Shown here: positions 58,689-63,221 of the stretch, in pieces
Position numbering within the stretch: the stretch's first letter is position 1
Layout of the letters: the number at the start of each line of letters is the position of its first letter
Assembly (NCBI GenBank): GCA_938073895.1
Contig: CALJFB010000004.1
Span: forward strand, 23,534 to 87,533
Source: an uncultured Flavobacteriaceae bacterium
GTDB taxonomy: Bacteria; Bacteroidota; Bacteroidia; Flavobacteriales; Flavobacteriaceae
Length of the DNA: 64,000 nt
Direction: 5' to 3'
Position numbers and translations under genes: made by a program
Notes under the pieces: generated by a model
Seen by the model: the letters and a program-made list of their open reading frames with translations, nothing else
Told to the model about the DNA's origin: nothing
The model's database searches: none

Positions 58689-59780
58689 CTAACTCTTCAC
58701 GTCTAAAGCATCGCGCAAGGCATTTCCAATTAGCATAAATGCCATTACTAAGACCATAATACATAAACCAGGCACTAAAGCCAAGTATGGTTTTCCAAGT
58801 ATTATATAATTATAATGATCTTTAATCATTGCGCCCCAACTTGCCATTGGTGGCTGCGCTCCAATTCCTAAGAAGCTTAAACCACTTTCTATTAAAATAG
58901 CAGCTGCAAAATTTGCCGCACAAATAACAATTACTGGCGCCATAATATTTGGTAGAATATGTTTTGAGATAATTCTGTAATTATTAAATCCTAATGCTTT
59001 TGCTGCGGTTACATACTGTAACTCTTTAGCACTAATTATTTGTCCTCTAACTACTCTGGCAACTTCTACCCACATTGTTAAACCTACCGCAATAAAGACT
59101 TGCCAAAAACCTTTCCCTAAAGCTAAGGTTATGGCTATAACTAATAATAAGGTTGGAATGGACCAAGTAATATTTATAATCCACATTATAAACGCATCGG
59201 TTTTTCCACCATAAAAACCTGCTATACTTCCTAAGCTTATTCCTATTAATAACGATATTAAAACGGCAATAAAACCAATAGAAAACGAAATTCGAGAACC
59301 AATTAATACACGACTTAATAAATCTCGTCCGTATTTGTCTGTTCCTAAATAATAGGTTTTAGATTCTACTAAATCTTCTGGCGATTTAGAATATTTTGAA
59401 ACGTCTAACTGCTTGTCTTGACCTATTAACCCATCGGAAGCATATTCTGTGTAACTAATAATGTCTCCTTCAACTTTATAGGATGAAATTGGTATGAGTA
59501 GATCTGGATTTTTGTCGCCTAAAAACCATTTGCTAAAAAAACCTTGCTTGTTTGTCTTTAATGAAGGTAAAACTATAGTCTTGACTGAAAATCCTGGCGA
59601 TTTACTATGTATACTTAATTGGATTTGATTAGCGTTTTCCGAATTATCTGGTGCTAAAACATAAGCAAACAATGCAAAAAAACCAATAAGTACTACAAGC
59701 GTAAAACTGAAAACGCCCCAAAAATCTTTTTTAAATTTTTGGAGCGCAATACTTGTTAATGACGTTGATTTATGTATCAA
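58689..59780 (-). CDS. Peptide/nickel-type ABC transporter permease (DppC/OppC-like)
   Basis: 363 aa; LGTDKYGRDLLSR, G..AGFYGG..D, ARVVRGQ, EAA-like YVTAAKALG, ESGLSFLG.G. Confidence 0.9.
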   Translation of the reverse strand: MIHKSTSLTSIALQKFKKDFWGVFSFTLVVLIGFFALFAYVLAPDNSENANQIQLSIHSKSPGFSVKTIVLPSLKTNKQGFFSKWFLGDKNPDLLIPISSYKVEGDIISYTEYASDGLIGQDKQLDVSKYSKSPEDLVESKTYYLGTDKYGRDLLSRVLIGSRISFSIGFIAVLISLLIGISLGSIAGFYGGKTDAFIMWIINITWSIPTLLLVIAITLALGKGFWQVFIAVGLTMWVEVARVVRGQIISAKELQYVTAAKALGFNNYRIISKHILPNIMAPVIVICAANFAAAILIESGLSFLGIGAQPPMASWGAMIKDHYNYIILGKPYLALVPGLCIMVLVMAFMLIGNALRDALDVKS

Positions 59781-59789
59781 TTATTTAAT

Positions 59790-59874
59790 ATTTAACGTTG
59801 TTGTATATGGTTTTTTGCGTGTTTTAAATAAACAAATACTTGCCAAAAGCAATTGATTATACACGTTGTTACCA
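59790..59874 (-). repeat. attC-like site of the SIMPL cassette
   Basis: Minus strand TTGGTAAC-AACGT-GTATA...TTGC...GCAA...TATAC-AACAAC-GTTAAAT; begins 1 nt after the SIMPL stop. Confidence 0.65.
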
Positions 59875-59881
59875 AATATTT

Positions 59882-60613
59882 TTATTCTACTTTATAAACC
59901 AACTTCATTGTAATTGAAGCTGTTTTTTCTCTTGAACTAGTGTTAAAAGTTCCTCCCCACGAATAATCTTCCTTTGAATTTTGTCCAGTAATTTGAAATA
60001 CTCCCATTTTAGCAGATTCTAATTTACCCAATTTTCCACCTGAAAACTCTGAAATTTTTTCTGCTCGTATTCTGGCATCTTCTGTAGCTTTAGAAATCAT
60101 TTCAATTTTGAGATCAGCCAATTTTGTATAATAATACCTAGGTGAGTCTGAATAAAACTGAACACCTTTATTCAATAATTCAGTAATTTCTCTAGATACT
60201 TTCTCAATTTTATCCACGTTTTCAGATTCAATTTGGACAGATTGGGTTAATTCATAACCTACAAACTCGTCTCCAATATAATTTCCATCTGATGAGTAAA
60301 TCTGTTTGTTTTTTTGATTTGTACTGACAGCACTATAAATAAGTTGTTCAATATTAATTCCTTTTTTTTCTATATATTCGTTTATAACGGATTTATTTTC
60401 TTCTAAAGTCAAATAGGCTTGTTTTAAGTCAATATTTTCAGCTCCAAACCTACCTTCCCAAACTATTAGGTCAGAAGAAAAATCTGCTTTACCTAATCCA
60501 GTTACTTGAATTTCGCCTTCAACCTTATTTCTATCTGTATATGCTTTTCCTAGGAAAATTGAAGATGCAACTATTGCAATTCCAAAAATTATTGAATTCG
60601 TATATTGTTTCAT
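59882..60613 (-). CDS. SIMPL (DUF541) domain protein, cassette cargo
   Basis: 243 aa; N-terminal TM, I.VTG.G, KIEMISKATEDAR.RAE.I, GKL...MGVFQIT; flanked by a perfect 13-bp inverted repeat. Confidence 0.85.
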   Translation of the reverse strand: MKQYTNSIIFGIAIVASSIFLGKAYTDRNKVEGEIQVTGLGKADFSSDLIVWEGRFGAENIDLKQAYLTLEENKSVINEYIEKKGINIEQLIYSAVSTNQKNKQIYSSDGNYIGDEFVGYELTQSVQIESENVDKIEKVSREITELLNKGVQFYSDSPRYYYTKLADLKIEMISKATEDARIRAEKISEFSGGKLGKLESAKMGVFQITGQNSKEDYSWGGTFNTSSREKTASITMKLVYKVE

Positions 60614-60636
60614 TATTTCTCTGTCTTTTTAATATT

Positions 60637-60689
60637 TGGTAACGGTTGTTGTAAAATGCGTTTTAATGTATTTTTACATAGTGTTATAG
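60637..60689 (-). repeat. attC-like site of the upstream cassette
   Basis: Minus strand CTATAAC-ACTA-TGTAAAAAT...ATTTTACA-ACAACC-GTTACCA; L-like arms differ by one unpaired base. Confidence 0.7.
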
Positions 60690-60702
60690 CCAGCTTTATT
60701 TT

Positions 60703-60974
60703 TCAATTCGCTATTCCTATTAGAAAAATCATCCCAATCATATAAAGTGGTATAAGTACAACTTGTGTCCAAAGGATGATTTTATATTTTTTTTCAGTTT
60801 TGGGTCTGCCTCTTCTCTAATTACTCTTCTAAACTCGATCAGTTCTCTTGGTGTCAGCCAGAAATATGATACTTTTTCACCCTTACTTTCCATTATTCTG
60901 AGCATTTTATACCAAAGCATCAATCCTGTTATTCCTCAGATTAGAAAGTATACGAATGGAAGTATTGGAAACAT
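60703..60974 (-). pseudogene. Decayed ~90-aa two-TM membrane protein gene (cassette cargo)
   Basis: ATG 60974; in-frame TGA at codon 13 (60938-60936); one extra A in the A8 run (60787-60794) restores ...LKKKYKIILWTQVVLIPLYMIGMIFLIGIAN* ending at 60703. Confidence 0.7.
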
Positions 60975-61070
60975 TCTTTTATTTTAATTGGCTACAACGT
61001 TTAAAAAAAAACTTTAAAATAACTATTCTTAGAAAATAGGTCTCTACAGTAATTTAATAAAACCGTAAAA

Positions 61071-63221
61071 CTAATCTTTTATAGTTTCTGTAATTTTAAT
61101 AGCATAAGTGGTCTTTAAATCTTGTAACACATGAATAGCTTCTTCCACATATACATCTTGATTTAAATTCTTATGCCATCTATTACGTTTTTCTTTTAAA
61201 ATAGTGTCTTGCTCAAATAACGCTTTTTCGTAAGGCAAAGAATTAAACACTAAATCTGTTTTATACTTAGATATAGAATCAAATTGTTTTGCTTCTTTTT
61301 CGTTTTGATCTAATTCTGCTTTGTACGTTTTATAGTTTAATGCATATTCTTTTTTATCCATTTTAGTTTTTGCCCATTTAGCATTAGCTTCAATTAAGCG
61401 TAATTGTTGATTTGCTTTCATACGTTCTTTACTACTTGCAATGGTTTTATCGTAATCAAAATAACGATTCCATTCTTGATACTTGGCAGGTTCAATTTTA
61501 TCCCAAGCTAATGGATTTTCTTGATCTCTTTCACCTATATCAATATAACTGTAACGATCCGGCACAACAACATCGCTGGTTACACCTTTTAACTGTGTAG
61601 ATCCGCCATTAATTCTGTAAAACTTTTGACGTGTTAATTTTAATGCGCCTAAATCTGTATGAGAACTACTTCTAACCATACGGTTTAAATCTAATACATT
61701 TTGAACTGTTCCTTTTCCATACGTTTGCTGACTTCCAATAATAATAGCACGTTTATAATCTTGCATTGCAGCAGCTAAAATTTCGCTAGCCGACGCAGAT
61801 AATTCGTTTACCATAATTACTAATGGTCCATCCCAAACAATAGATTTATCTGTATCCTCCAAAACCTCTTGCGTTTCTCCTGCAGAACGCACTTGTACAA
61901 TTGGGCCATCTTTAATAAAAAGACCTGCCATATCTACAACAGTTTTTAAAGATCCACCACCATTATCTCTAAGGTCTAACACTAAACCTTCAATACCTTC
62001 TTCTTTTAAACGCTCAATTTCTTGTCGAATATCTGATGCCGCATTTCTATTCTTATAATCTGTAAAATCAATATAAAAACGTGGTAAATTTATAATACCA
62101 AATTTTTTATTTTCCTTTTCTACAATAGAAGATTTTGCATAGGTTTCTTCCAACTCTACAACATCTCTTACAATAGTAATATCTTCTACAGAACCGTCTA
62201 CTTTTCTAACGGTTAAAATAACTTTGGAATCTTTTGGGCCTTTTATTAATTTAATAGCATCGTCTATACGCATACCAACAACACTAACGGCAATTTTTTC
62301 TTTTTGTTGGCGTACTTTTAGAATAACATCTTCAACTTCTAATTCTTCGCCTCTCCAAGCTGGTCCACCAGAAACTAGAGAAATAATTTTTATATTATCG
62401 TTTTTCTTTTGAAGTCTTGCACCAATTCCTTCTAATTTACCAGACATTTGTTGGTCAAATTTCTCTTTCTCTTTTGGAGCTAAGTAAGATGTATGCGGAT
62501 CAAACTCTTCTACAATAACGTTTATATATACAGAAAACCAATCTTCGCGATCCATATCTTCTAAATAGTCGTTATAGTAAGAATCTAAAGAACTTAACGT
62601 TTCCTGTCTGGCTTTAGCTTCTAGTTCTTTAGAAGACATTGTTTTAACATCTGTAGTATTTTCTACTTTAAAATCTGGTTTGTTTTCTATTTTCTTTTGC
62701 TCTACCAAATCATCATAATTAGATAAAACGGTATATTTTAGTTGTTTTCTCCAACGTTCTTTTAATGCTTTTTTATTTTTTGGGAATTCTAATTTCTCAA
62801 AATCAGCATTGTAAAATTCGTCTTTAGAAAAATCAAAAGGTTTATCTAAGATGTCCTTAAAATAACTTTTAGCTTCTTGCTGGCGAATTAACATTTTCTC
62901 GTTAACTAGATTAAAAAACGAAATATCGTAAGCCTTAAGCTGATCGTCTATTTTTGTTTCAAAAGCTTTAAATTCTTTAATATCTTGCTTAATAAAGTAG
63001 CGTTTAAATGGATCTACAGCTTGTAAATAATCCGAATAAACTTCTTTAGAAAAATCGTCGTTAATATCTTTAGGCTCAAAGTGCAATTGCTCTAAAGCCA
63101 TAGTAATAATTTGGATTAATAATTTATCTTTATTGGGATCGTTGTCTACTTTAGATGTAAAGCTACAAGAGCCAAAAGCAAACAAGACTAAAAGTACTAA
63201 AACGCTATAATTCCTCTTCAT
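61071..63221 (-). CDS. prc: Carboxy-terminal processing (tail-specific) protease, S41 family lipoprotein
   Basis: 716 aa; lipobox FGSC; DPHTSY, GIGA, PDZ (GGPA), DLRDNGGGSL, SASASEI, TYGKGTVQ. Confidence 0.93.
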   Translation of the reverse strand: MKRNYSVLVLLVLFAFGSCSFTSKVDNDPNKDKLLIQIITMALEQLHFEPKDINDDFSKEVYSDYLQAVDPFKRYFIKQDIKEFKAFETKIDDQLKAYDISFFNLVNEKMLIRQQEAKSYFKDILDKPFDFSKDEFYNADFEKLEFPKNKKALKERWRKQLKYTVLSNYDDLVEQKKIENKPDFKVENTTDVKTMSSKELEAKARQETLSSLDSYYNDYLEDMDREDWFSVYINVIVEEFDPHTSYLAPKEKEKFDQQMSGKLEGIGARLQKKNDNIKIISLVSGGPAWRGEELEVEDVILKVRQQKEKIAVSVVGMRIDDAIKLIKGPKDSKVILTVRKVDGSVEDITIVRDVVELEETYAKSSIVEKENKKFGIINLPRFYIDFTDYKNRNAASDIRQEIERLKEEGIEGLVLDLRDNGGGSLKTVVDMAGLFIKDGPIVQVRSAGETQEVLEDTDKSIVWDGPLVIMVNELSASASEILAAAMQDYKRAIIIGSQQTYGKGTVQNVLDLNRMVRSSSHTDLGALKLTRQKFYRINGGSTQLKGVTSDVVVPDRYSYIDIGERDQENPLAWDKIEPAKYQEWNRYFDYDKTIASSKERMKANQQLRLIEANAKWAKTKMDKKEYALNYKTYKAELDQNEKEAKQFDSISKYKTDLVFNSLPYEKALFEQDTILKEKRNRWHKNLNQDVYVEEAIHVLQDLKTTYAIKITETIKD

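Follow-up and report, generated by a model that had tools for sequence, protein, structure and literature searches.

The window analysed here (the whole 64-kb stretch of DNA) carries, between the tail-specific protease gene prc and a gene encoding an OppC-like ABC permease, a segment with two open reading frames (ORFs) and two short elements with inverted arms. One of these, designated element B, is the subject of this analysis. It is located on the + strand, between ORF61 and a gene of the SIMPL/DUF541 family, both encoded on the - strand; the other, element A, follows the SIMPL gene. The positions of all features are collected in Table 1, in which, as in the text, G labels denote genomes of the comparison set (G000 is the genome of the window) and C labels denote contigs. 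The family comparison set consisted of 151 Flavobacteriaceae genomes.

Comparative analysis revealed that prc is directly followed by the permease gene in all seven relatives examined (four of the same genus and three of other genera). The two genes are separated by 3-5 nt in G004, G001 and G002 and by 95 nt in G003, and are adjacent also in G006, G007 and G008. Therefore, the 1.29 kb of DNA between them in the window represents an insertion. Its left junction is an AAT-N7-AAC-G box without a hairpin, and on the gene strand the first of two predicted cassettes starts at the GTT of this box (60998-60996). The 95-nt spacer of G003 matches the left junction of the window up to GTT and the right junction from that GTT onward, as predicted by exchange at GTT. 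The start codon of the permease gene is TTG in G000 (59778-59780) and also in G003 (L079), where extra DNA likewise precedes the gene; in G004, in which prc directly adjoins the permease gene, it is ATG. The inserted DNA seems to have taken the place of the original start region of this gene. The G+C content of the insertion is 0.292, compared to 0.307 for the window, which places it at the 26th percentile of 1290-nt segments, and no G+C skew of the insertion was found.

ORF61 gave no match in searches of Pfam and NCBIfam, and a search of the other 150 family genomes retrieved no homologue. The longest inverted repeat of the region, a perfect one of 10 nt (60725-60734 and 60774-60783), extends across the end of this ORF.

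Table 1. Features of the locus and related loci (window coordinates, unless a genome, contig or locus label is given).
Feature	Position	Strand	Remarks
Window	G000:C4:23534-87533		64 kb from a genome of 2.26 Mb in 65 contigs; A+T-rich
Element B	60641-60685	+	AAC-G box 60641-60644, TGTT box 60682-60685
Element B, stem arms	60650-60660 and 60665-60678	+	extra T at 60671
Element B, full match to covariance model R1	60630-60700	+	model positions 1-70 of 70
Element A	59794-59870	+	AAC-G 59794-59797, TGTT 59867-59870; after SIMPL stop
Element A, stem arms	59802-59807 and 59858-59863	+	50-nt interior
Insertion	59781-61070		1.29 kb, prc stop to permease start; absent from 7/7 relatives examined
Left junction	60986-60999	+	AAT-N7-AAC-G box without hairpin
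Predicted cassette 1	60643-60998	-	~356 nt; ORF61, ends in element B
Predicted cassette 2	59796-60642	-	~847 nt; SIMPL/DUF541 gene, ends in element A
ORF61	60738-60923	-	61 codons; upstream of element B
SIMPL/DUF541 gene	59882-60613	-	Pfam PF04402, E 2e-20; downstream of element B
prc (tail-specific protease)	61071-63221	-	Pfam PF17804, PF03572, PF11818, PDZ; upstream flank of insertion
ABC permease (OppC-like)	58689-59780	-	Pfam PF00528, PF12911; downstream flank of insertion
Recombinase, Xer-like, 376 aa	G000:C15:47-1177		PF13495 + PF00589
Flavo-1 RNA hairpins with the same 7-nt arms	L007:1470-1554, L009:1474-1558, L010:1466-1554 (G000 C1, C5, C13)		RF01705, 43-44 bits, gathering score 42

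Element B and its family

An earlier, sequence-only reading had described 60641-60685 as a compact attC-like hairpin. Its parse of the letters proved exact when checked by script. The outer arms TGTAAAA and TTTTACA (60650-60656 and 60672-60678) are perfectly complementary and leave a single unpaired base, T60671, as had been proposed, and the unpaired spacer is asymmetric (6 versus 4 nt), a property that recurs in the family consensus described below. The inner arm does contain the two G.T pairs assigned to it; however, it can form at most five pairs and not six, since a loop of 2 nt would otherwise remain. The match to the covariance model takes in a T-rich tail and, at 60631-60633, a conserved AAT set seven bases ahead of AAC. 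The folding strand is the + strand, i.e. the one opposite to the genes.

Homologous hairpins elsewhere, whose absence the sequence-only reading had listed among the refuting observations, were found. When 40 relatives were searched at the DNA level with the whole intergenic region, only the hairpin part was matched, in other genera, with 88% identity over 59 nt in G023 and further matches in G013, G016, G012 and at a second site of G023. The alignments contained two variants, which share an unchanged centre and differ in the outer stem, where both arms are swapped together. A covariance model (R1) was built from seven copies, of which element B is one. Applied to the 64-kb window with filters off, it scored element B at 76.7 bits (E 7.7e-14) and the next best place at 16.9 bits (E 0.52); the former score is partly circular, as element B served as a seed, and independent support comes from the copy in G023 with its 88% identity. 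R1 matches are present in 59 of the 151 family genomes, with up to 24 copies per genome. A second compact copy in G000 was identified at C16:26095-26164. This copy is flanked by a hydrolase gene and a gene of the AraC family, in an island adjoining topA (G000:C16:21000-32000, corresponding to L022:5000-16000), which also carries genes for a 503-aa tyrosine integrase and a serine recombinase and a DNA methyltransferase-like gene.

In 44 fetched loci, 95 R1 matches (83 distinct) were detected. After removal of 12 duplicate rows, three short reverse-strand partial matches and one reverse-strand duplicate, 79 distinct full-length copies were retained for analysis of the family. Their consensus (+ strand) comprises AAT, seven bases, AAC-G, approx. 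6 unpaired nt, a stem arm of up to 12 pairs, a loop, the second stem arm, 4 unpaired nt, TGTT-R, approx. 8 bases, G and a T-run. The end boxes and the spacers are fixed, whereas the arms enclose a terminal loop of anything from 2 to 95 nt. Across the end boxes (AACG/TGTT), the A/T pair is formed in 75 copies, C/G in 60 and the following G.T in 70; the position next to the AAC/GTT core forms a Watson-Crick pair in 33 of the 79 copies, and positions further out in 18-32. A counterpart of T60671 occurs in only seven copies, and each of the other stem insertions in one to five. The bulge, which had been put forward as a feature of the site, is therefore incidental.

In the alignment fitted to the model, 95.9% of the stem cells are paired, compared to 77.3% in shuffled controls and 30-50% with slid partners, and both sides change in eight of the 12 stem pairs. 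Since such an alignment could bias the stem test, the analysis was repeated with a structure-blind MAFFT alignment of 51 compact copies, in which the same hairpin was predicted, with compensatory changes in six of nine pairs. These comparisons show that the hairpin of element B is a genuine member of a conserved, structured family found at cassette boundaries. Taken alone, its folding energy and the number of inverted repeats around it are no better than chance (values are given below), as would be the case for a random inverted repeat in AT-rich intergenic DNA. Such an origin is refuted by the copy in another genus, the distance in R1 score from the runner-up and the covarying stem, and we assign it practically no probability.

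Two pattern searches of G000 added nothing to the family. The arm pattern was matched at 10 places (4 in the control), of which three similar ones proved to be Flavo-1 RNA (RF01705; Table 1), unrelated to element B. A loose regular expression for AACG...TGTT hairpins returned mostly noise.

Gene context, arrays and the linked recombinase

The copies occupy a strictly oriented position with respect to genes. In 65 of the 79 copies (4 in the mirror control), the opposite strand carries an ORF of at least 80 aa whose end falls between -40 and +25 nt from the right end of the element, and in 43 (mirror control, 3) the next such ORF starts at the left end. Arrays of copies in the same orientation, spaced by 0.5-6 kb, were identified in G069:C47, G055:C1, G068:C1, G139:C14, G016:C20 and G123:C18. 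In each of the genomes G068, G069, G139 and G055, the gene with the best similarity to the integron integrase family TIGR02249 adjoins the array; in G068, this recombinase gene is followed by 68 nt, a gene for a protein with a beta-lactamase fold and then an element. At the 13 loci found to contain a recombinase gene and an element within 25 kb on one contig (a count taken from a reading of the match tables, not a systematic one), the recombinase gene comes first and is co-directional with the cassette genes in every case. Among 80 named recombinase loci, all eight R1 matches are located downstream of the gene, on the opposite strand. Three contigs of G023 (C11, C12 and C16; element at 43-113) and one of G052 (C7:17-86) start at the same offset, 43 nt before the element, which may reflect another abutting repeat or systematic assembly breaks.

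Alignment of element A with element B showed that their end boxes and spacers are the same, although element A is not detected by R1 in the window. BLAST searches with the two halves of element A gave matches in 85 of the 151 family genomes, with up to 97% identity, and once more in G000 (C57:20271-20397), after the stop codon of a gene for a 241-aa protein. Element A is an internally truncated copy of a long type of approx. 150 nt, and element B represents a compact type. At least one of the two types is present in 100 of the 151 genomes, about two thirds. In the contigs of four public metagenome runs, many contigs share with the window only 59794-59827 of element A and diverge exactly before AAC, and the depth of this bin is from 4 to approx. 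1900 times the summed depth of its flanks. Element A is a very common repeat whose shared part starts at the AAC box.

The recombinase of G000 scored 230.5 bits with NF040815 (cut-off 220) and 209 bits with TIGR02249 (cut-off 265); some sources name it XerD. No TIGR02249 match above the cut-off was found in G000 or in any of five array-bearing relatives. The closest solved structure is that of VchIntIA (2a3v, E 3.1e-40), followed by XerA (5hxy, E 1.9e-39). The alignment with VchIntIA skips residues 176-248 of that chain (73 residues), where the recombinase has 30, and its catalytic part is collinear with XerA (5hxy) and XerD (1a0p), which indicates that the insert of integron integrases is missing. 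The array-linked enzyme is therefore not an integron integrase, which supports the earlier suggestion that the spacer lengths point to a distinct recombinase specificity.

The protein carries an additional N-terminal domain of approx. 105 residues, present in 37 of the 151 family genomes. The predicted model of this domain (residues 1-108, L001:854-1177; pLDDT, a per-residue confidence score, 80.9) has a beta-beta-alpha-beta-beta-alpha core, with pLDDT >90 for residues 10-70. A Foldseek search of PDB with this model returned no match with an E value of 0.001 or lower. The best VIA-align matches, both weak and below the safe level of the tool, were T4 UvsW (Z 6.8, rmsd 2.3, 62 residues) and the N-terminal half of XPB (Z 6.2). 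The weakly matching structures are DNA-structure-recognition domains (the T4 UvsW N-terminus, the XPB damage-recognition domain and SMARCAL1 HARP). Homologues of the recombinase with 54-72% identity are present in many genera of Flavobacteriaceae, with further records from Cyclobacteriaceae, Vicingaceae, Brumimicrobium, Fluviicola, Chitinophagales and Jiulongibacter, and many of the contigs carrying them end shortly downstream of the gene. The recombinase contig of G000 ends 46 nt past the stop codon, after a hairpin followed by CGTTG (L001:1-80), and at the same place in G068 a hairpin is followed by TTGTTGGCA. This place may represent the platform's own attachment site.

These data bear on whether element B might be a classical attC site, recombined by IntI, with the window containing an orphan attC cluster. 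The AAC...GTT boxes, the unpaired spacer, the variable loop, the bottom-strand preference and the position 3' of ORFs would all fit, and clusters of attC sites without an integrase (CALIN) are common according to the authors of IntegronFinder. However, neither G000 nor the five array-bearing relatives encode a protein above the TIGR02249 cut-off, the recombinase has the short segment where VchIntIA has its insert, the bulged base is rare in the family, and Watson-Crick pairing is mostly lost at the first position beyond the AAC/GTT core. In addition, the only complete integron that the IntegronFinder 2.0 paper records for Bacteroidetes is one in Salinibacter. We consider this explanation very improbable.

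A role outside recombination has also to be considered, in which the elements are selfish or regulatory intergenic repeats, such as REP (repetitive extragenic palindromic)-like sequences, antisense RNA hairpins or terminators. A high copy number in intergenic regions across many genomes and metagenomes, as well as the T-rich tail in the + orientation, would be in line with this, and the elements (100 genomes) are far more widespread than the N-terminal domain of the recombinase (37). On the other hand, a scan of 60300-61200 revealed no terminator-like site, and the T-run lies approx. 15 nt beyond the TGTT box, not beside the stem. The G.T pairs become C.A on the mRNA strand, and no Rfam family (Rfam 15, E up to 10) matched over the site in the same segment. 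Moreover, the strict gene orientation, the recombinase-headed arrays and the GTT junctions would be left unexplained. Overall, such a role seems quite improbable. A promoter scan of this segment detected three promoter-like sites (5.0 expected).

Two candidates of this kind were considered individually. An intrinsic terminator was dismissed, as the stem is A+T-rich, no T-run follows it on the gene strand and no terminator-like site was detected in the scanned segment. A REP element with its RAYT (REP-associated tyrosine transposase) is unlikely, as G000 (completeness 92.67%) gave no match to the Y1 transposase family PF01797; the corresponding control was positive in six of 14 known genomes.

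Strand preference and the proposed mechanism

Folded as single-stranded DNA, 70 of the 79 copies have a lower minimum free energy (MFE) on the + strand, three are equal and six favour the - strand, with a mean advantage of 1.76 kcal/mol for +. In the + orientation, the stem cells contain 131 G.T and 13 A.C. The strand-biased folding claimed in the sequence-only reading thus holds at the family level, and not for the copy in the window, in which the difference is negligible.

Taken together, the insertion, the element family and its context make it probable, in our judgement, that element B is a recombination site closing a gene cassette, the functional counterpart of attC, in an integron-like gene-capture system of Flavobacteriaceae. 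In the proposed mechanism, the end boxes AAC-G and TGTT would pair, and unequal unpaired spacers would separate them from a longer stem with a loop of any length. The folded strand, opposite to the cassette genes, would then offer two recombinase-binding duplexes approx. six bases apart, which is the layout of a tyrosine-recombinase core site; this likeness would arise only when the + strand folds, according to the attC principle. The candidate enzyme is the 376-aa Xer-like tyrosine recombinase, homologues of which head co-directional cassette arrays in the relatives. Strand exchange would take place at or beside the GTT (gene strand) of the end box, and the cassettes ORF61 plus element B and SIMPL plus element A would have entered a GTT site located outside the platform, between prc and the permease gene. 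We infer that element B acts as folded single-stranded DNA and that the Xer-like recombinase is the enzyme acting on the element family; the copy in the window is presumably still active.

The same recombinase might instead act on an ordinary duplex site, the inverted arms being two binding sites for a dimer, with no folding involved. The compact copies do resemble a core site (arms of 11-12 nt around a centre of 6-8 nt), and the enzyme is of the Xer type and aligns collinearly with XerA, a recombinase of duplex dif sites. Palindromic binding sites would covary too, and the G.T excess at three positions could reflect arm-specific contacts. Nevertheless, a gap of 2 to 95 nt between the arms, combined with constant end boxes and spacers, is not compatible with a duplex core site of fixed spacer. 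The G.T pairing within the end boxes, the better folding of the + strand in most copies and the position of the junctions at the AAC/GTT end boxes, not at the palindrome centre, are also contrary to it. The folded site is ranked above the duplex one, which we regard as unlikely, on account of the loop variability, the G.T pairs and the location of the junctions in the end boxes.

A number of observations weigh against element B being a folded cassette site, the first group of which concerns the fold itself. The structure proposed in the sequence-only reading has, as single-stranded DNA, an energy of -0.2 kcal/mol on the + strand and +1.2 on the -, and the MFE structure of element B is a different fold (-3.4 and -3.1 kcal/mol, respectively). 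For the 56-mer, the MFE is -3.7 kcal/mol (+) and -3.3 (-), with z values of -0.42 and -0.46 relative to 200 shuffles. Among 9135 sliding 56-nt segments of the window, 27.7% fold at least as well on the + strand and 52.7% show a strand difference of at least 0.4 kcal/mol, and 14 inverted repeats of at least 6 nt are present in the 301 bases around the element. As regards the family, the alignment used for the stem test (A3) was fitted to the covariance model, and R1 itself favours G.T. The G.T excess is due mainly to three columns (15/160, 30/148 and 37/142), and the seven stem pairs that are all Watson-Crick in the seeds contain 12 G.T and 8 A.C. The number of independent events behind the choice of strand is therefore small.

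The second group concerns the link to the enzyme and the mobility of the cassettes. No recombinase is encoded within the window; the TIGR02249-like matches of G000 are on C15, C24 and C34, not on C4, and its sole candidate recombinase is on a contig other than that of the window. Elements are present in 30 of the 37 genomes with the N-terminal domain and in 70 of the 114 without it, a loose link (Fisher p 0.03, uncorrected for kinship). ORF61 may not be a gene. Homologues of the SIMPL gene were found in 44 of the 151 genomes, with no such elements alongside at the loci in seven other genera, and BLAST searches of elements A and B and the upstream flank against 11 loci gave nothing; the SIMPL cassette was therefore not traced to another array. 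In the public runs, contigs of three other samples span the arrangement A-SIMPL-B-ORF61 (X2 and X3 cover 59815-60747, X5 covers 59710-60955). In X2 and X3 (two samples), element B carries three clustered changes (60648, 60649 and 60651, in the 5' spacer and the second stem pair), by which one G-C pair of the stem becomes A.C, with no change listed in the partner arm.

No joint skipping a cassette or joining prc to the permease gene was detected in the contigs of the four runs, which says little, since rare variants drop from contigs.

A wider proposal may be advanced more tentatively, as one that is plausible without being favoured: cassette capture by folded hairpins would proceed without the domain specific to IntI, an integron-like system across marine Flavobacteriaceae and other Bacteroidota would be run by a Xer-like recombinase whose N-terminal domain is new, cassettes would also be dropped at bare GTT sites between housekeeping genes, such as prc and the permease gene in the window, and the rAID-1 arrays (recombinase-associated acquired interbacterial defence) of gut Bacteroidales would represent one branch of this system.

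Comparison with known systems

Textbooks present integrons as the route by which single genes are collected and reshuffled in bacteria, and their chemistry is commonly supposed to depend on a domain exclusive to integron integrases. If the sites described here act as folded DNA, the integron principle would be older, or easier to evolve, than assumed, and a large reservoir of mobile cassettes carried by marine bacteria would go unseen by standard tools. In IntegronFinder surveys, Bacteroidetes come out as nearly integron-free. The window provides a clean natural example of insertion outside the platform, and since both junctions and an unoccupied relative are in hand, the crossover point is directly testable. 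A literature search confined to open-access papers and bioRxiv retrieved no description of the flavobacterial system.

Element B shares with integron attC sites the AAC...GTT ends (60641-60643 and 60683-60685), the junction at GTT, the unpaired central spacer (5', approx. 6 nt; 3', 4 nt) and the variable terminal loop. At the family level, the strand opposite to the genes folds better, as in attC. One site is found at the 3' end of each cassette, in arrays of the same orientation, and the window contains an orphan pair of sites away from any integrase. In contrast to integrons, the flavobacterial recombinase lacks the insert that marks IntI and its gene lies ahead of the cassettes in the same direction, there is no conservation of extrahelical bases, and the family has an extra AAT box seven bases outside AAC. 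The 7-nt boxes of attC follow the consensus RYYYAAC/GTTRRRY and are mutually complementary, whereas in element B (TGGTAAC/GTTATAG) only TAAC and GTTA pair, so that the consensus is not matched beyond the core. With no IntI, no conserved extrahelical bases and no pairing kept beyond the core, element B is attC-like in design and context and is not a classical attC; the original designation of an attC-like hairpin is retained in this restricted sense.

The flavobacterial recombinase is collinear with XerA and XerD in its catalytic part. However, while the sites of the Xer/dif system are short duplexes of fixed spacer length, the flavobacterial sites have variable loops, strand asymmetry and an arrangement in arrays, and the recombinase has the added N-terminal domain.

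Among described systems, rAID-1 of Bacteroidales, reported in 226 of 423 genomes (Ross et al., bioRxiv 10.1101/471110), comes closest. It is defined there by a 5' XerD-like recombinase >44% identical to B. fragilis BF9343_RS08045, low G+C content, orphan immunity-gene cargo and at least two co-directional downstream genes, and its conserved intergenic repeats are called reminiscent of integrons; the definition is repeated in a 2025 follow-up (10.1101/2025.05.03.651265). The parts of these descriptions available to us mention no folded site, AAC/GTT boxes or crossover point. The copy in the window differs from rAID-1 in its location away from any recombinase, its ordinary G+C content and its cargo, a SIMPL gene and an orphan ORF. 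In the flavobacterial relatives, though not in the window, the layout matches that of rAID-1: a XerD-type tyrosine recombinase gene at the 5' end, followed by short co-directional genes with repetitive intergenic motifs.

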